Part shown: positions 7,793-19,677 of the stretch, one piece after another | Layout of the letters: each line of letters begins with the position of its first letter | How positions within the stretch are numbered: the stretch's first letter is position 1 | Source of the DNA: a virus | Length of the DNA stretch: 49,385 nt | IMG/VR virus record: IMGVR_UViG_3300025858_000002 | Strand: one strand, 5' to 3' | Made by a program: the position numbers and the translations under genes | Notes under the pieces: model-generated | Database searches by the model: none | The model's input: the letters and a program-made list of their open reading frames with translations, nothing else | Told to the model about the DNA's origin: nothing

Positions 7793-8578
7793 TTAAAATA
7801 AAGCATTTAGCTTTATTGGTTTGTTCGAGTATAAACGCTCGATGCCTTTCTTTTTATTTAATGCCCCACCCCCTTCATTCCATTTAGAGAATTCAGCCAC
7901 TAAATAAAACTCTTTTGGCATAGAATATTCAGATATTAAAACAACATTATCCTGTTCTAATGCCCATTTATAAAATGTATCGTGATCAAACTTTCCAGAC
8001 TTATAACCGTGCTTCCCAGCGTAAGGTGGATCACAATATATCAACCAACCTTTAGGTACATCAAAGTCACTATAAGACCCTTCTATAAATTCTAGGTCTA
8101 GATTAACTCTTGAATGTAGTAGTATTATATCTTCTATATGTGAATATCTTTGATTGGGCTCAGCTTTGCCAGCTAAGAATTCAGCTATTTTTTTATCTTC
8201 TTTAGACTTTGCACAAAGATAAGTACCACCTTGATTTGAGAATGACCACATAGATCTTATCATTGCTCCAATATAAGTATCATCTTTCTTCATAATATTA
8301 AATTCATCTCTGGTAATAGGTATATCTTTGTATTGCTTTACCCATTCTGGGAACTGTTTACAATGTCTATGTAGATCAATCACACCAGATTCTATATCGT
8401 TAGCAACCACTTTAAACCCCTTTTGAGCCATATAATATGCAAAAGATCCACCACCAGTAAATGCATCATAAATACCTATAGGCTTATCTATATCTAGATT
8501 CCTAATGGTTTCGTATAATTCATCTAGTATTCCTGCTTTATTTCCAAGATAGGGGATACGAGGTTCTAATTCAGACAT
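7793..8578 (-). CDS. Dam-like N6-adenine DNA methyltransferase (D12 class)
   Basis: FTGGGSF (motif I) and IYCDPPY (motif IV). ATG 8578 is preferred to the TTG at 8590 used by the ORF track. Confidence 0.8.
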   Translation of the reverse strand: MSELEPRIPYLGNKAGILDELYETIRNLDIDKPIGIYDAFTGGGSFAYYMAQKGFKVVANDIESGVIDLHRHCKQFPEWVKQYKDIPITRDEFNIMKKDDTYIGAMIRSMWSFSNQGGTYLCAKSKEDKKIAEFLAGKAEPNQRYSHIEDIILLHSRVNLDLEFIEGSYSDFDVPKGWLIYCDPPYAGKHGYKSGKFDHDTFYKWALEQDNVVLISEYSMPKEFYLVAEFSKWNEGGGALNKKKGIERLYSNKPIKLNALF

Positions 8579-8723
8579 TTTTATTCTCAAGGTTTTTTCT
8601 ACGGTATTTGTTTTGGTTTTTTCTTATAGTTTCTGCACGATTTTGACATTTAATTAAATAATCATAATCATCTTTACAGATAGTAACAAACTCTTTACTT
8701 TTCTTTACTGGTTCTATTATCAT
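8571..8723 (-). CDS. Hypothetical small basic protein (50 aa)
   Basis: Own translation MIIEPVKKSKEFVTICKDDYDYLIKCQNRAE.... ATGA overlap with the upstream gene. Confidence 0.4.
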   Translation of the reverse strand: MIIEPVKKSKEFVTICKDDYDYLIKCQNRAETIRKNQNKYRRKNLENKNV

Positions 8724-12746: not shown

Positions 12747-12923
12747 TTATTTACTATTTTCTGCAATTAAATCTAATAAATTAGTCATTGCTGCCTGTTC
12801 GCGCCATTCTTGTTTATATTGAACACAATCTTTTATATCAGATATTCCAACAATTTCACTGCTATATCTGGTAACTTGTGCCTGTCTGGTCCAGACAAAT
12901 TGTGATACTTTTATTTCTTTCTT
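12747..12923 (-). pseudogene. Orphan C-terminal fragment paralogous to the 11658..12083 product
   Basis: Own translation QFVWTRQAQVTRYSSEIVGISDIKDCVQYKQEWREQAA aligns with RFVWTRAARVVRMSAETLFITEVKDCVQFKQDWQKQAS. The frame opens only after a TGA inside the methyltransferase gene end and has no start codon. Confidence 0.5.
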
Positions 12924-13411
12924 TCAACAACACATATTGTGTCATTATGAGCTCCCCCGTGAGGAACAAGCAAAACTTCAACTATTTCAAATCCATATTT
13001 ATTACCAACACCACCAGACGACCATCCAAACGATATTACATAACCCCCTGTTTTCACTATTCTTTGCAATTCTGGTCTAGACTTAGTCATAGGGTTAGAT
13101 TGTGTGTCTTGTGTGGTGCAACTACCTCTCACTTTTCTATAAACTTCCGATAGCTGTCTTAATGAGTATGGAGGGTCAAATAAAACGCAATCAACTGATT
13201 CATTATCAAATCTTTTAAGAAACTCTAAGTAATCTAGATGGTTATCAGCAGAAGTATTCGGGTCAATGTCGTTAGTTACATCTGCAATTTTACAATCTTT
13301 TGCAAACGGGTCTATTATAAAACCTATTTTGTAATTATTTATTAGGTCTTTTATGGGTTTAATTGTAAAAGTTAGAGAATTTGGCATCGCCCATATTCTA
13401 TTTATTTTCAT
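12911..13411 (-). CDS. Small DNA methyltransferase (N6-A or N4-C type)
   Basis: IIDPFA (motif I-like) and LFDPPYS (motif IV). Confidence 0.7.
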   Translation of the reverse strand: MKINRIWAMPNSLTFTIKPIKDLINNYKIGFIIDPFAKDCKIADVTNDIDPNTSADNHLDYLEFLKRFDNESVDCVLFDPPYSLRQLSEVYRKVRGSCTTQDTQSNPMTKSRPELQRIVKTGGYVISFGWSSGGVGNKYGFEIVEVLLVPHGGAHNDTICVVERKK

Positions 13412-14077: not shown

Positions 14078-14162
14078 TGGTGGGCAGGGCTGGATTTGAA
14101 CCAACGAACTCTGAGAGAACAGATTTACAGTCTGCCTGCTTTAACCTCTTGCATACCTACCC
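14078..14162 (-). tRNA. tRNA-Tyr (anticodon GUA), class II, CCA encoded
   Basis: Hand-folded cloverleaf. Acceptor GGGUAGG/CCUGCCC. D stem UGC/GCA with a GG loop. Anticodon arm GCAGA-CUGUAAA-UCUGU. 13-nt variable arm. T arm GUUGG-UUCAAAU-CCAGC. Ends A-CCA. Confidence 0.9.
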
Positions 14163-15387: not shown

Positions 15388-15843
15388 TTAGTCTTCCAAT
15401 GCTGATTCTGGATCTTCTTCCAACGCTTTAATCTGAGCTACCAAAGCAGAGATACCTGCTTTTTGTGAACCCTTAGCAATTTTCAGAACTTCACCAACAT
15501 CTTTTGCACCTTTGACTTCGTCCATACGTTCGTGCAAGGCAGACATCAAACGTTTGGTTTTTGCAGCAACGGCTTTGAAGATATTATAGTTTTTAATATC
15601 AACTTTACCGATGGTCAATGGGATATCAGAAATCTGAGTACCACCATTTTCTGCTTTAATATACTCATATTCTGCATAAACTTCTTTCACTTTGAAATAA
15701 GCCAGCTTGCTATGAGCCCAGACAGAAAAGATATCGCCCTTAGCAACTTCTTTTTCACTTGTTGCATAAAAACGAAATTCTTTTGAATCCGGTTCGTCTT
15801 TGGTATGAGATACCAAGACACCTTTTAAGATTAAGACTTTCAT
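15388..15843 (-). CDS. Hypothetical protein (first gene downstream of the ribozyme)
   Basis: ORF track. SD AAGGAG upstream. Visibly higher GC than its neighbours. Confidence 0.55.
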   Translation of the reverse strand: MKVLILKGVLVSHTKDEPDSKEFRFYATSEKEVAKGDIFSVWAHSKLAYFKVKEVYAEYEYIKAENGGTQISDIPLTIGKVDIKNYNIFKAVAAKTKRLMSALHERMDEVKGAKDVGEVLKIAKGSQKAGISALVAQIKALEEDPESALED

Positions 15844-15866
15844 TCATTTCTCCTTTTTTATGATTA

Positions 15867-15934
15867 GACTAGTCTCATCAGTAGCATAGGAGTCACCTAT
15901 ACTAGACCGGCATTATACCGGTTTCGACAAATGA
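15867..15934 (-). ncRNA. Type II hammerhead self-cleaving ribozyme
   Basis: Minus strand reads UUUGUC-GAAA-CCGG(UAUAAUG)CCGG-UC^UAGUAUAGG(UGACU)CCUAUGCUA-CUGAUGA-GAC-UAGUC. All core nucleotides are present (CUGAUGA, G10.1-C11.1, GAAA, A15.1-U16.1, C17). Stem I is 9 bp and stem III 5 bp, and stem II is open. Confidence 0.85.
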
Positions 15935-17137
15935 TTACAATGGCAATTCGTTTTCATTTGCTGGGTCTTCCATATCTAAATCTTTCATAAATTCATCTAT
16001 GAAATCATCTACATATGAATCAAATGTATAATACATAACTGACCTTTCTTGAGCATCTTTACCAGGTTTAATGTTCTGTACCAAGAAATCTACTAAGGAT
16101 TCTGTTGATACTTCTTTACCAGCCTTAATAAGTCTTTGAACAGCATTACATACTGCATAATGAGCGTGAATTTGTTCTTCAACTTCTGTTCTAGCATCTT
16201 TTGTCTTATACCCCTTAGACAGATACTTATTCAATAAGATATTTCTTTTGAATTGAAATTCTTTTAATACGCTATGTATCTCATCTTTTTTGTCGTATGT
16301 TTTATTTGGCAATTTTTCATCAGGCATTATAGATGGGTCTAGAAAATACAAACCTTTCTTTGATAAACAAAGTTTTGTTCCATATTCATAAACAGGTATC
16401 TTTACACGAGATGTTGCATATATCCAAACTCCCTGTTGTTTATCATACAACCCAAATTCTTTATGAAATTTCTTTGTAGAAAAGTTAATTTGCGGCTTGA
16501 ATTCAGAGTCAGGCTTTGGCAAGAAGTTATACCCTTTATGACCATAACCATCATCAAGATCATCATATTTGTTATAGTTATAGTTCTTAGGATAAGAATA
16601 AATTTTAGGTTTAAAAGCTCCAGAATTGGAAAACCAAGCACCATCTTTTTCTTCTCCTAATCTCTTATTGAGAATAAGAATTTCGCCAGTTACATTATCC
16701 ATAATAGCAAACTTAGACGTTCCAAGATATGCTTCTAATAATGCCTGATATTTCTTAACCCAAGTAATATCTTTATCGTGCAAATATGTATCACCAAATG
16801 TTTCAGAATCAGTTTTTCCTTCTGTTGGTGTGATAGCCAATGTCCCGTTATGGGCTAAACTAATTCTATTATAGATAAATGGGTGTGTGTTTTCTGGCTT
16901 AACTTCACCCTTTGATGCAATTCTAAAATGAGCAACAAATGAAGTATTTTTTTCGTTAACTAATTCTAACATACCGAGAAAATCTTCTTTAACCATCATA
17001 CCTTTTTTAAACTTTGTAGGTTTGCCATCTTCTTTAAAGATAACACCACCGCCTTGAGGGTTTGCTTCCCAAGCTCTTTTAAAATATTCTTTATCCAACG
17101 GATCAACTCCAGCTGGCTTCGCAATAATAATGCACAT
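15935..17137 (-). CDS. Class-II (Ntn, Cys2) glutamine-amidotransferase-like protein with about 200-aa C-terminal extension
   Basis: MCIIIAKPAG (nucleophile Cys directly after Met), HFRIASKG, NTHPF and LAHNGTL. Confidence 0.7.
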   Translation of the reverse strand: MCIIIAKPAGVDPLDKEYFKRAWEANPQGGGVIFKEDGKPTKFKKGMMVKEDFLGMLELVNEKNTSFVAHFRIASKGEVKPENTHPFIYNRISLAHNGTLAITPTEGKTDSETFGDTYLHDKDITWVKKYQALLEAYLGTSKFAIMDNVTGEILILNKRLGEEKDGAWFSNSGAFKPKIYSYPKNYNYNKYDDLDDGYGHKGYNFLPKPDSEFKPQINFSTKKFHKEFGLYDKQQGVWIYATSRVKIPVYEYGTKLCLSKKGLYFLDPSIMPDEKLPNKTYDKKDEIHSVLKEFQFKRNILLNKYLSKGYKTKDARTEVEEQIHAHYAVCNAVQRLIKAGKEVSTESLVDFLVQNIKPGKDAQERSVMYYTFDSYVDDFIDEFMKDLDMEDPANENELPL

Positions 17138-17374
17138 AGTTTCTTCCTTTATAAATTATGAAGAAGATAGCCACCAAAACTATAAGCGACACTCGGGTCA
17201 AATTATAGTGTTATGGTAAACCCTCACAAGTAGTGACTTTCGCATACTATATCCAAACAAGTTTGGCATCAATGGTACTCACCCTATGTTGATCAACGGG
17301 TAACTTTTACATAGACAACTATCTTCTTCTTTTGTTAAGCAGACAAATAATATTACCTCTGTTAAAAGTAAAGA
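17138..17374 (-). promoter_or_regulatory. Structured 237-nt leader between amidoligase and amidotransferase-like genes (element F)
   Basis: An 11-bp long-range helix GAAGAAGAUAG/CUAUCUUCUUC (17329-17319 with 17170-17160) closes about 150 nt and ends about 20 nt before the start codon. Inner helices are ACUAUAA/UUAUAGU and CCAAAC-UU-GUUUGG. A GAAA tetraloop motif is present. Confidence 0.4.
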
Positions 17375-18727
17375 TTATCCATCTAACTTATTCACTAGGA
17401 CCAAGGCTTCTTGGTCAGTAATGAATCTTGTCTTCTTTTGTTGTTCAATACAATCTTTTATATGCTTCTTTGTAGCTTTTGAGAAAGACTTATACCAATC
17501 TTTTTCTGGTATATTCTCAGCTACAAGATTAAACATTTCCTTAGCAAACTTAATACGTTTAATAATCAAATCGTGGTCTAATGATGATGAAAAGATTCTA
17601 AACTCACAAGTATCTGTTCTACGTCCGGGTGCAACTGCCCAATGATGCGAATCTGTTCCAGAATCAAATGAACAATATCTCATAAACTTTTCTATATTAG
17701 TTCTTAAAGATATTGCCTTCAATAATATTTGCATCTCAGCAGAGCTACGAGCGTGCTTCATAATAACTCTAGCAATATTTCTAGAGTCCTTACCAGGCAT
17801 CGATACGTGAATATGAATTCCTGCTGTTGGTCCAGCTTTACCACCATTTTCTGATATAGCTTTACAAACTTCTTTTAACGGAGATATATACTTCCACCAA
17901 GAATAAGACCCACAGTTCCAAGATAACTCATTTTGTCCATCAACTGATGAATCATATCCATAGAAAGCTAATCCTTTATGAGCATCTTCTAATTCTTTCC
18001 AGCCATAGAAATTGCCTTCAAACTCCATTTCCAGCCCCATAATAGCAGTATTTTGCTTATCCATTGGAGTCTTAAAGAATTTCAAGTCGCCCCTGAATCC
18101 ATAATGTCTATTACCCATTTCTTTTGTTGTCAATTCATAATTGCGATGACAAGTATTACATACGAGTCTATCACAGTTAGGAACACGGGTTAAAGTGTTT
18201 TTAATCTCGCTAATTCTTTGGATTGATTCTGTTGTCTTGTGACAAAAATCACAGGTCTGAGCAACTTTAACAAAGTGTTTATTAGGCAATTTACTCAATT
18301 TAACCTTATAACGTCTTTCAAGTTCTGGTAACCCAAGCTTCAAATATTCTTCATCTTTCTTATCAATACGCTTTTTTTCAGCTTCTTGCTGTTCCTTAGT
18401 CTTTTTATTACTATTCCAAATTACAGTGGATTGTCTTCGTTGATATGCATCTAATGCTTCTCGATAACTTGGAGTAGGTATTCTAACCTCATCCCAGCTT
18501 TCTGATACACTTATCTCAGCACTTCTTGGCAGATGAATAACTTCAAATCTTACAAAATATTCCCTACCATTTCCAACACCAGTACTTTCAATCCCTCTAA
18601 AAAGCATAGTGGCACTTTCTGTTGCGATACCATTATCTCTAAAATAGAATCGTTTAAATTCTTCCATTTCACTATCGTTTGGAATAGTATCAAAATATAC
18701 TCTGCCTTCTGTATGTCTTAAATACAT
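17375..18727 (-). CDS. Amidoligase_2-family protein with N-terminal extension and Cys-rich insert
   Basis: GLEMEFEG, AGIHIHVS and CEFRIFSS (E.E / H.H / EFR triad). CDFCHK...CDRLVCNTCH. Confidence 0.7.
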   Translation of the reverse strand: MYLRHTEGRVYFDTIPNDSEMEEFKRFYFRDNGIATESATMLFRGIESTGVGNGREYFVRFEVIHLPRSAEISVSESWDEVRIPTPSYREALDAYQRRQSTVIWNSNKKTKEQQEAEKKRIDKKDEEYLKLGLPELERRYKVKLSKLPNKHFVKVAQTCDFCHKTTESIQRISEIKNTLTRVPNCDRLVCNTCHRNYELTTKEMGNRHYGFRGDLKFFKTPMDKQNTAIMGLEMEFEGNFYGWKELEDAHKGLAFYGYDSSVDGQNELSWNCGSYSWWKYISPLKEVCKAISENGGKAGPTAGIHIHVSMPGKDSRNIARVIMKHARSSAEMQILLKAISLRTNIEKFMRYCSFDSGTDSHHWAVAPGRRTDTCEFRIFSSSLDHDLIIKRIKFAKEMFNLVAENIPEKDWYKSFSKATKKHIKDCIEQQKKTRFITDQEALVLVNKLDG

Positions 18728-18738
18728 AATTTACTCCT

Positions 18739-19677
18739 TTAATTCCAGCTACAAGCTGTCAGTAAATTGTTTATTTTATCCTTAGAATACCCATAAAGAT
18801 GTTTATTGTCTTCGTGATTATTCAATAAATAAACAATATCTTTTATCTTTTTTGGCATATCAACAAACATTGTATTGATATTTCCTTTTTCTATAATATA
18901 ATCAGTAAACCACTTCATTAAGATCATCCGTTTATATATAATCTCTGGGTGGTTAGTTGATTCAAACATCCTAAATTCAAACGTACCAAATGTTGATAAT
19001 TGATTCCTATATGAACCACCTCCAAATCCATAATTAGTCCTATTTCTAGCTGATATACCTGCAAAAAATTCATATATAGGGTTATTATCTGTACAAACTC
19101 TACTCCAAAAATTTATTACCTTTACAATAGCTGGGTGAGATATATGAATATGTTGTCCAGCAGTTTTACCAGCTTTACATCCTTTTTCCTTTGCATAATC
19201 TAATACTGCTTTAATATCTTTAAGCCGCCATTTATTCATAGGATAATGATTAGTCACAATTTCACAGCCACCATCTGCTACACTTCCATCACAATGAGAA
19301 GAATGAACAATCTTATTGTCAGGTTTGCAAACTGGTCCTTCGAGTTCTATCTCAGTTCCAAGATGACAAATCCTTTTTACTGTCTTTTTAGGTTGATTAT
19401 TATCAAACTTCTTTGTAAATAATAACATTTGATTGTATGTATCTGAACACGCAACACCCCAACAATTATTGTGATAAGGAGTCCTGTATTGACTTCCACT
19501 TCCTTGTCTTATTTGAATACCATCTGCTGTATGCCAAATAAATACCCAATAAGGACGACCTTCATTTCTCAATTTTATAGCTTTTATTTTTCTACCTTTC
19601 ATAACAATATCTTCGTTTTCTGGTATCAAAGATAAAAAATCAGCCCACGTAGCTGGTAACTTTTTAATTATAAACAT
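18739..19677 (-). CDS. Amidoligase_2-family protein (paralogue)
   Basis: GTEIELEG, AGQHIHISH and FEFRMFEST. Confidence 0.7.
   Translation of the reverse strand: MFIIKKLPATWADFLSLIPENEDIVMKGRKIKAIKLRNEGRPYWVFIWHTADGIQIRQGSGSQYRTPYHNNCWGVACSDTYNQMLLFTKKFDNNQPKKTVKRICHLGTEIELEGPVCKPDNKIVHSSHCDGSVADGGCEIVTNHYPMNKWRLKDIKAVLDYAKEKGCKAGKTAGQHIHISHPAIVKVINFWSRVCTDNNPIYEFFAGISARNRTNYGFGGGSYRNQLSTFGTFEFRMFESTNHPEIIYKRMILMKWFTDYIIEKGNINTMFVDMPKKIKDIVYLLNNHEDNKHLYGYSKDKINNLLTACSWN

Follow-up and report, generated by a model that had tools for sequence, protein, structure and literature searches.

A divergent three-enzyme amidoligase and glutamine amidase-like module bordered by a type II hammerhead in the early region of an uncultured myovirus-type phage

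What might two amidoligases and a glutamine amidotransferase-like enzyme accomplish together in a phage genome? The question is raised by a locus in the IMG/VR virus record IMGVR_UViG_3300025858_000002, a stretch of 49,385 nucleotides (the window) that is the nearly complete genome of an uncultured phage of about 49 kb. Three open reading frames (ORFs), all on the minus strand and found exactly where the initial annotation had placed them, encode in order of transcription the Amidoligase_2 proteins A2b and A2a and a class-II glutamine amidotransferase-like protein, hereafter GAT. The three genes are a co-transcribed enzyme module of the early region of a myovirus, and are inherited as a unit. 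The reading that we favour, and to which we give about an even chance, is one of ligation and cleavage: A2b and A2a would place a gamma-glutamyl-type amide on a target, and GAT, an N-terminal nucleophile (Ntn) enzyme with a catalytic cysteine, would cleave it. The genes and their parts are:

18739..19677, minus strand: A2b, ORF of 312 aa, Amidoligase_2 paralogue
17375..18727, minus strand: A2a, ORF of 450 aa, with orphan N-terminus, helical linker, four-cysteine zinc ribbon and ligase core
18398..18727, minus strand: A2a N-terminal module, residues 1-110, unique to this phage
18149..18253, minus strand: A2a zinc ribbon, C159xxC162 ... C190xxC193
17378..18052, minus strand: A2a ligase core, residues 226-450, with E233xE235xE237, D259/S261/E267, H305xH307xS309, R342 and E375xR377
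15935..17137, minus strand: GAT, ORF of 400 aa, class-II (Cys-Ntn) glutamine-amidase domain plus C-terminal domain
16604..17137, minus strand: GAT N-domain, residues 1-178, with nucleophile Cys2 and complete glutamine/gamma-glutamyl pocket
15959..16525, minus strand: GAT C-domain, residues 205-393, small beta sheet and long helices

Are the two ligases what they seem to be? The Pfam Amidoligase_2 profile (PF12224, gathering cut-off 22) matches A2a at 22.4 bits and A2b at 23.3 bits. Because these scores are marginal, family membership was tested further on homologues, alignments and folds. A2a has 99 homologues, 35-55% identical, and 44 of 47 A2a relatives match Amidoligase_2, with a best E value of 4.9e-8; A2b matches PHROG 7469 'amidoligase' at 3.4e-7. 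The E.E, H.H and EFR triads picked out in both proteins by the initial annotation are all present, as GLEMEFEG (residues 231-238), GIHIHVS (303-309) and CEFRIF (374-379) in A2a, and as GTEIELEG (107-114), GQHIHIS (174-180) and FEFRMF (233-238) in A2b. The A2a residues E233/E235/E237, D259/S261/E267, H305/H307/S309, R342 and E375/R377 are invariant in an alignment of 47 sequences, and so are E109/E111/E113, D130, S132, H176/H178/S180, R211 and E234/R236 of A2b in four sequences. The ExE, HxH and ExR motifs correspond to the metal- and ATP-binding residues E129/E131, H269/H271 and E357/R359 of glutamine synthetase (GS).

The AlphaFold2 model of A2a has a mean predicted local distance difference test (pLDDT) value of 78.6 and is of high confidence from residue 111 on. 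In Foldseek searches it matches YbdK (1r8g; 3e-5, probability 1.0), and the other matches include GS (8fbp, 9n4x), glutamate-cysteine ligase (2gwc), PafA (4bjr) and Dop (4b0r, 9cku, 7oxy); YbdK and GS outscore PafA and Dop. Residues 102-281 of A2b align to residues 226-422 of A2a in hhalign, motif for motif, with a probability of 99.35% (E 6e-21), and both paralogues therefore look catalytically competent. Scores above the cut-off, the fold of A2a, the invariant residues and the adjacency of the genes bear out the assignment of both ORFs to Amidoligase_2. By these comparisons A2a and A2b look like paralogous, catalytically intact ATP-dependent carboxylate-amine ligases of the glutamine-synthetase/GCS2/PafA fold.

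The ligase core of A2b spans residues ~100-306 and is preceded by ~100 variable residues. A2b was taken at one point to be an orphan, as a word-indexed search matched only the protein itself; this was ruled out by syntenic counterparts in the relatives, 26-31% identical, and by an exhaustive phmmer search, which yielded 47 cluster representatives sharing residues ~100-306 only. A2b belongs to a fast-evolving family. In GenBank phages no homologue of A2a or A2b was found by tblastn, and megablast of the region was also empty.

A2a carries accessory modules upstream of its core. The extension of about 230 aa with CxxC pairs described in the initial annotation is present (C159xxC162, C190xxC193); it is not a distinctive trait of this copy, as a CxxC(20-40)CxxC pattern occurs in 99 of the 99 A2a homologues. 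The four cysteines are invariant in the 47-sequence alignment, and the beta strands of the zinc ribbon are modelled at pLDDT >90. The N-terminal module varies. Residues 1-110 are modelled at pLDDT <50, and BLAST clustering of the N-termini of the 99 homologues gave clusters of 89, 6, 2, 1 and 1, the window copy being a singleton. Pentapeptide repeats are found at this position in relatives, Pentapeptide_4 being matched in 19 of 47 sampled, and the profile of the relatives' module matches the McbG-like structure 2xt4 (E 0.008). A pentapeptide-repeat-like module precedes the zinc ribbon in most A2a relatives (P0002-P0091, e.g. L005 6001-7275). We know of no published fusion of pentapeptide repeats to an amidoligase.

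What does the third enzyme add? Pfam GATase_4 matches GAT at 27.2 bits (cut-off 23), and 107 homologues, mostly full length, are 38-46% identical to it; a PF13230 hit is precomputed for most of them. The motifs MCIII (residues 1-5), HFR (70-72), THPF (84-87) and HNG (96-98) are in place, and an alignment of 48 sequences shows no variation at M1, C2, R72, N83, H85, P86, H96, N97, G98 and D110. The nucleophile Cys2 directly follows the initiator methionine, upstream of which lies a ribosome-binding site (RBS). Hidden Markov model (HMM) alignment to GlmS pairs C2 with Cys1, R72 with Arg73, S75 with Thr76, H85 with His86, N97-G98 with Asn98-Gly99 and D110 with Asp123; in GlmS these residues provide the nucleophile and the oxyanion hole and bind glutamine by its alpha-carboxylate and alpha-amino group. 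The pocket thus aligned appears suited to a gamma-glutamyl group with free alpha-amino and alpha-carboxylate. The AlphaFold2 model (mean pLDDT 89.3) consists of two domains joined by a disordered linker, and the N-domain has a predicted Ntn alpha-beta-beta-alpha fold; Foldseek matches it to GlmS (1xff, 3ooj) at 1e-5, PurF (1ao0) and EgtC (4zfj) at 1e-4, with probability 1.0. The closest solved sequence relatives are stand-alone YafJ-type (GATase_4) proteins and GlmS. The class-II amidotransferase/Ntn motifs recognised in this protein by the initial annotation are thus sustained by the GATase_4 score, the fold and the invariant pocket. The profile searches and active-site comparisons that it had proposed as checks place all three proteins above the cut-offs of their families (Amidoligase_2 and GATase class II), with matching folds for A2a and GAT and catalytic residues kept.

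The C-terminal extension of about 200 aa is real, and forms a folded domain of ~190 aa with pLDDT mostly >90. It had been regarded as distinctive; the long form of GAT is found family-wide. The domain has no match in PDB by fold or sequence and none in Pfam, and its BFVD matches are other phage Gn_AT_II proteins only. No recognisable synthase or acceptor domain for ammonia was found in it by fold and sequence comparison to PDB, and the idea that it is GGCT-like was dropped, as no GGCT-fold match emerged from the PDB fold search. The C-domain evolves faster (mean column conservation 0.31-0.49 vs 0.63-0.82 in the N-domain), and its columns hold no invariant polar set. GenBank phages match GAT only distantly and over residues 1-175. 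In two of them the N-domain clade is fused to a gamma-glutamylamine cyclotransferase (GGACT)/AIG2-like domain, at Pfam E values of 7.5e-18 and 2.7e-21. The two fusion proteins (L002 5001-6218, MW202828; L004 5001-5897, phage C75C1, OQ984151) are annotated just as 'gamma-glutamyl cyclotransferase'.

Is the module peculiar to one phage? About 100 metagenomic relatives, found on myovirus-like contigs of ~50 kb, have the common order A2b, A2a, GAT, and in related contigs the long GAT is followed by a gap and then by a protein of ~150 aa. Of all the genes, only A2b, A2a and GAT recur in ten of ten family loci. An amidoligase ORF lies directly upstream of the related GAT gene in 53 of 78 IMG/VR loci; the two ORFs typically overlap or are 0-15 nt apart, the median gap being ~10 nt. 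The duplication of the ligase had been listed as distinctive of this copy. The paralogy is real, as the hhalign result indicates, and the order is shared family-wide. Ligase duplication, the Cys-rich extension of A2a and the longer GAT are found throughout the relatives and are therefore family traits; specific to this copy are only the 237-nt spacer described below and the orphan first ~110 residues of A2a. Two loci, L030 (IMG/VR 3300009034_000057) and L084, contain two amidoligase ORFs each, and L030 also two GAT-like ORFs; duplication inside such cassettes therefore occurred more than once.

The spacer is located between the A2a and GAT genes:

17138..17374, minus strand: A2a-GAT spacer, 237 nt, specific to this phage

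In relatives only 4-20 nt are found at the same position. The initial annotation had described a structured leader here. The spacer exists, and its structure finds no support: the folding z-score is -1.08 (minimum free energy vs shuffled sequence), there was no Rfam match above noise in two passes, and neither an ORF nor a homologue in ~130 related loci was found. A structured leader is therefore rejected as a conserved element. The spacer contains one promoter-like site (17229..17202, n=1), at a frequency not above chance, and a strain-specific regulatory role is conceivable.

Where does the module end? GAT is separated from the next gene by 92 nt, which accommodate a ribozyme-like element:

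15867..15928, minus strand: type II hammerhead, with GUC-GAAA, stem III, UC, stem I, CUGAUGA-GAC and 3' tail AGUC
15388..15843, minus strand: p151, 151 aa, immediately 3' of the ribozyme, with strong RBS and acidic C-terminus (...EEDPESALED)

The hammerhead noticed at the 3' end of the cluster is present. It had been counted among the distinctive features of this copy, and in this respect the claim fails, as the element is shared across the phage family: it follows the GAT gene directly in eight distinct relatives, and in every close relative with enough sequence. Cleavage is predicted between 15905 and 15904. The folding z-score is -3.06. The core (C3-U4-G5-A6-N7-G8-A9, G12-A13-A14, A15.1-U16.1, H17 and G10.1-C11.1) is complete in the window and throughout the distinct relatives, variation being limited to N7 (L008) and to a 1-nt insertion after A9 (L012), and the sequences of stems I and III vary among the relatives. 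In a nine-sequence alignment pairing is seen in 95.9% of the pair cells and compensatory change in 13 of the 19 pairs; none of 500 shuffles reached the observed score, and slid controls gave 27-36%. Three hammerhead helices, with stem II open, are strongly supported by this covariation. The covariance model derived from the alignment detects exactly one copy in the window, and two held-out family copies at 64-68 bits, directly after GAT. Loop I pairs with the 3' tail AGUC in a pseudoknot, 86% of its cells being paired; two compensatory changes support it. They are A-U to G-C at columns 59/85 and C-G to U-A in the held-out L130, and amount to few independent events. The architecture agrees with the consensus published for type II hammerheads (Perreault et al. 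2011, PMC3088659).

The best Rfam match in the region is freshwater-2 (RF02980), at 15841-15922 on the minus strand, with 33.6 bits vs a gathering score of 49.9. This motif looks unrelated to hammerheads. The match spans stems III and I of the hammerhead and includes the next gene's RBS and start codon, and freshwater-2 might mark a related element located upstream of homologous genes. An exact-pattern scan of IMG/VR for core and tail gave 40 loci and one further convincing type II hammerhead (L095), and the tail sequence is therefore no general marker. An intergenic element resembling a type II hammerhead, with full core and 5-bp stem II and scoring 27.5 bits with our covariance model, was also noted in Xanthomonas phage DES1 (L001 152-229), a phage that carries GGCT, amidoligase, GAT and ATP-grasp genes; here the element is not beside GAT. 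In L005 (8450-8640) and L008 (8255-8430) the hammerhead is set off from the GAT stop codon by about 180 nt of extra, GC-richer sequence with no Rfam match.

The product of the gene that follows, p151, is better conserved than the enzymes (50-56% identity across the family). It is found in eight of ten family loci, the very ones in which the hammerhead occurs. Searches of Pfam, PHROG and PDB gave no match for it, and a role like that of single-stranded DNA-binding proteins is only a guess. We regard p151 as a neighbour of the enzyme module and a putative member at most. In a distant subclade (L015-L017, i.e. IMG/VR 3300033463_001253, 3300031998_000220 and 3300031993_000143) both ligases and the long GAT are kept, and hammerhead and p151 are absent; their place is taken by unrelated genes and by a simple hairpin (AAATGGGAC...GTCCCATTT).

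How might the enzymes work together? Each ligase would use ATP to convert a carboxylate to an acyl-phosphate, which would then be joined to an amine, and the two steps carried out by A2a and A2b would together leave a cytoplasmic target with an amide or isopeptide of gamma-glutamyl type. Removal of the initiator methionine of GAT would expose the cysteine, and the enzyme could then cleave the gamma-glutamyl amide. The product would in this way be matured, edited or recycled, by analogy with EgtA/EgtC and PuuA/PuuD, which are pairs of a GS-fold ligase and a GAT-fold hydrolase. The accessory modules (zinc ribbon and N-terminal module of A2a, N-terminus of A2b, C-domain of GAT) probably select the target, and because they are swappable we suspect a macromolecule rather than a small metabolite. 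By cutting the transcript after the GAT gene and ahead of the next one, the hammerhead would let the mRNAs of the enzymes and of p151 have separate fates. The analysis establishes the folds, the conservation of the catalytic residues, the paralogy, the synteny, and the ribozyme architecture with its covariation; we infer that the chemistry is of gamma-glutamyl type, in which order the steps occur, what kind of target is used and what the cleavage brings about. A role of GAT as a hydrolase is favoured because its best matches are of the stand-alone YafJ/EgtC type, because the C-domain does not look catalytic, because the GAT clade is fused to GGACT in two GenBank phages, and because pairs of GS-fold ligases and GAT-fold hydrolases recur in metabolism.

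Several points weigh against this proposal. The conserved glutamine pocket would fit the hydrolysis of free glutamine just as well. The sequence data identify neither the activated carboxylate nor the amine nor the target. The Pfam scores of the cassette proteins are marginal, A2b is assigned its probable fold through hhalign to A2a and not by a structural model of its own, and the GGACT fusions belong to distant relatives (28-31% N-domain identity), with none in this phage family. Rfam hammerhead models stayed below threshold at every setting on the window and nine relatives, the sole signal being 14.9 bits to Hammerhead_3 in L005; the hammerhead call is kept because of core and covariation. 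As to the host, the only hint comes from the binning of metagenome-assembled genomes (MAGs), which points to Clostridia. The searchable literature to mid-2026 gave no activity data for any Amidoligase_2 protein or phage copy of the cassette, which agrees with the statement of the initial annotation that no biochemical function is established for the phage versions. The closest thing to a phenotype is a set of recurrent missense mutations in both genes, obtained on directed evolution of a Pseudomonas phage (FJK.R9, PMC11450229).

Could GAT instead feed ammonia to the ligases? In a glutamine-dependent amidotransferase complex the Ntn domain would release ammonia from free glutamine, the acyl-phosphate made by one or both ligases would capture it, and a target carboxylate would become a carboxamide, as with AsnB or in the amidation of peptidoglycan precursors by MurT/GatD. 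This main rival is allowed by the conserved pocket and the tight coupling of the genes, and we hold it to be possible, if unlikely. The catalytic and glutamine-binding residues of true class-II enzymes are complete in GAT, an N-terminal GAT followed by a second domain is also seen in GlmS, PurF and AsnB, tight and often overlapping ligase and GAT genes suggest a stoichiometric complex, and ammonia is the natural nucleophile of GS-fold enzymes. However, the best matches of GAT are hydrolases of the stand-alone YafJ/EgtC type, its C-domain has neither invariant polar residues nor a known synthase fold, and relatives fuse the GAT clade to GGACT, a breaker of gamma-glutamyl amines. Moreover, the 237-nt spacer uncouples the A2a and GAT genes in the window phage, and to our knowledge no GS-fold enzyme is paired with an Ntn glutaminase.

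Remodelling of cell-wall precursors is what has been predicted for similar phage genes. According to passages of PMC10580990, PMC5498523 and PMC11945000, the neighbourhood of amidoligase and class-II GAT was predicted by Iyer et al. 2009, in agreement with the initial annotation, and a 'peptidoglycan modification cassette' is attributed to Iyer et al. 2009 and Hardies et al. 2013. As described there, the classical cassette comprises COOH-NH2 ligase, amidoligase, ATP-grasp, GGCT and GAT, is thought to block superinfection, and is found in phages phiEco32, LUZ24, PaP3, tf, RIO-1, PSA-HP1 and UFV-P2, among others. Applied to the window, the ligases would add unusual linkages to stem-peptide precursors, GAT would trim them, and the altered envelope would block superinfection. 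The published prediction, made in the same sources for phiEco32, LUZ24, PaP3, tf, RIO-1 and PSA-HP1, speaks for this explanation. In the window, three of the proposed steps are missing: COOH-NH2_lig (PF14395), which is present in UFV-P2, ATP-grasp and GGCT/AIG2 have no Pfam match among the 25 ORFs scanned, which include the cluster and 20 neighbours. Gamma-D-glutamyl linkages are native to peptidoglycan, a point in favour, but zinc-ribbon and pentapeptide-repeat modules are unexpected on enzymes acting on nucleotide-sugar-peptides, and the window ligase profiles do not detect the LUZ24-type amidoligase. On balance we consider cell-wall remodelling doubtful for this family.

The suspected macromolecular target admits a bolder version, in which the enzymes write and erase a mark. 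An early glutamylation-type isopeptide would be placed on a host DNA-binding or defence protein and removed again, the target being set by the swapping of modules. The module of pentapeptide-repeat type, found beside the invariant zinc ribbon in 89 of the 99 A2a relatives, is a potential DNA mimic; an orphan domain would have replaced it in this phage, and the C-domain of GAT and the N-terminus of A2b would be equally fast-evolving parts of the same device. We rate this version as speculative and doubtful too. PADLOC defence and anti-defence models found no match.

A tagging system akin to pupylation is distinctly improbable. The two paralogues would take the roles of PafA (ligase) and Dop (deamidase/remover). 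A tag, either a small protein or a peptide, would become linked through its C-terminal Glu to lysines of target proteins, and the Ntn enzyme would process it. A pair of paralogous GS-fold genes in one operon mirrors PafA/Dop, both of which are among the Foldseek matches (4bjr; 4b0r, 9cku, 7oxy). Nevertheless these are outscored by YbdK and GS, both paralogues hold the full ligase motif set, and no small tag ORF is conserved beside the cassette in the ten family loci.

Finally, that the genes are auxiliary metabolic genes (AMGs) serving nitrogen or glutathione-type metabolism of the host, e.g. synthesis and turnover of glutamine or gamma-glutamylcysteine, is compatible with the GS/GCS2 fold and has been proposed for Phage-ZRK32, with its amidoligase, GAT, GGCT and glutathione synthase genes (PMC10945688), but is very improbable here, given that accessory domains evolve fast and N-terminal modules are swapped, that the genes lie in the early region among small takeover-type genes, that Pfam similarity to core enzymes is marginal, and that the family is found in only three MAG contigs, probably binned phage, among 185,579 genomes, two of the three assigned to Clostridia, which makes a host-derived metabolic gene untenable.

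Hydrolysis by GAT of an amide made by the two ligases is thus the reading retained, and the setting of the module may be described. The same proteins are also encoded by a 49,436-nt contig from the JGI metagenome 3300010352. The early/replication arm consists of the minus-strand genes between about 2.4 and 23 kb; among its products are DnaB, ERF, YqaJ exonuclease, a Dam-type methylase, lysozyme and YopX, and the neighbours of the cassette in it are small takeover-type genes. The plus-strand arm encodes terminase, portal, protease, major head protein, tail sheath and baseplate hub, and the phage is therefore of myovirus type. Scans for promoters and terminators gave sites at or below chance frequency. 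A tRNA-Tyr gene (anticodon GTA, long variable arm) is found at 14078-14162 on the minus strand, ~1.2 kb downstream of the cassette. The ORF at 12911-13411 (minus strand, 166 aa) includes a DPPY motif, as in N6-adenine/N4-cytosine DNA methyltransferases, and has no Pfam match at E<=0.01; the Dam-type gene at 7793-8590 is a second methylase.

The association of amidoligase and class-II GAT is one of the more widespread enzyme pairs of phage early regions, reported also from many isolated podoviruses, and more than 15 years after its prediction it is still without a demonstrated reaction. The family described here is a minimal three-enzyme version with clean boundaries and ~100 natural variants. 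Natural domain swaps indicate where target specificity lies, the ribozyme marks the 3' end of the unit, and the GAT-GGACT fusions narrow the chemistry to gamma-glutamyl amides. A solution would give a function to thousands of phage genes annotated as 'amidoligase' or 'glutamine amidotransferase', which are now read without evidence as AMGs of nitrogen metabolism or as cell-wall modifiers. For practical use, the lack of an isolate and of an established host is a limitation. If glutamylation of host proteins were the true role, it would be a new ATP-dependent post-translational chemistry of host takeover or anti-defence built on the GS fold, and the first function for this widespread pair.

How does the module compare with known systems? 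Like the classical cassette, it has Amidoligase_2 directly upstream of a class-II GAT with C-terminal extension, in the early/replication arm. In contrast, ATP-grasp, GGCT/AIG2 and COOH-NH2_lig, three of the five classical components, are missing, and the window cassette is therefore a divergent variant and not a typical member. The classical cassette is found in podoviruses and has one Amidoligase_2, whereas the window phage is myovirus-type and has two paralogues, A2a being further set apart by zinc ribbon and swappable N-terminal module. The sequences are far apart, as the window ligase family profiles miss the LUZ24-type amidoligase of UFV-P2. The window cassette is, in short, a reduced and very divergent version of the phage system predicted in 2009.

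EgtA (GCS2)/EgtC (class-II Ntn) and PuuA (GS-like)/PuuD similarly associate a ligase of GS/GCS2 fold with a GAT-fold hydrolase of gamma-glutamyl amides, and EgtC is among the best structural matches of the window GAT. These systems differ in that they have a single ligase and no accessory domains, identity being 14-16%, whereas the window has two ligases in a phage early region. GAT has the Ntn fold of GlmS, PurF and AsnB and, like them, a Cys nucleophile at the N-terminus, a pocket of the Arg73/Asn98-Gly99/Asp123 type and a C-terminal second domain; unlike theirs, the C-domain of GAT matches no synthase fold and is without invariant catalytic residues, and the best HMM is that of the stand-alone YafJ type. 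PafA/Dop resemble the ligases in being two paralogous GS-fold enzymes of one operon and in structure, but the window lacks a gene for a Pup-like tag, both its paralogues are ligase-like, and an Ntn hydrolase is found where pupylation has a link to the proteasome. The ribozyme, finally, has the open stem II, complete core, G10.1-C11.1 pair, short stem II, 4-bp pseudoknot of loop I and 3' tail, and intergenic location in a phage that are known from published type II hammerheads (PMC3088659), and differs from them in falling below every Rfam hammerhead score and in its fixed position between GAT and p151 across a phage family, where its cleavage is predicted.

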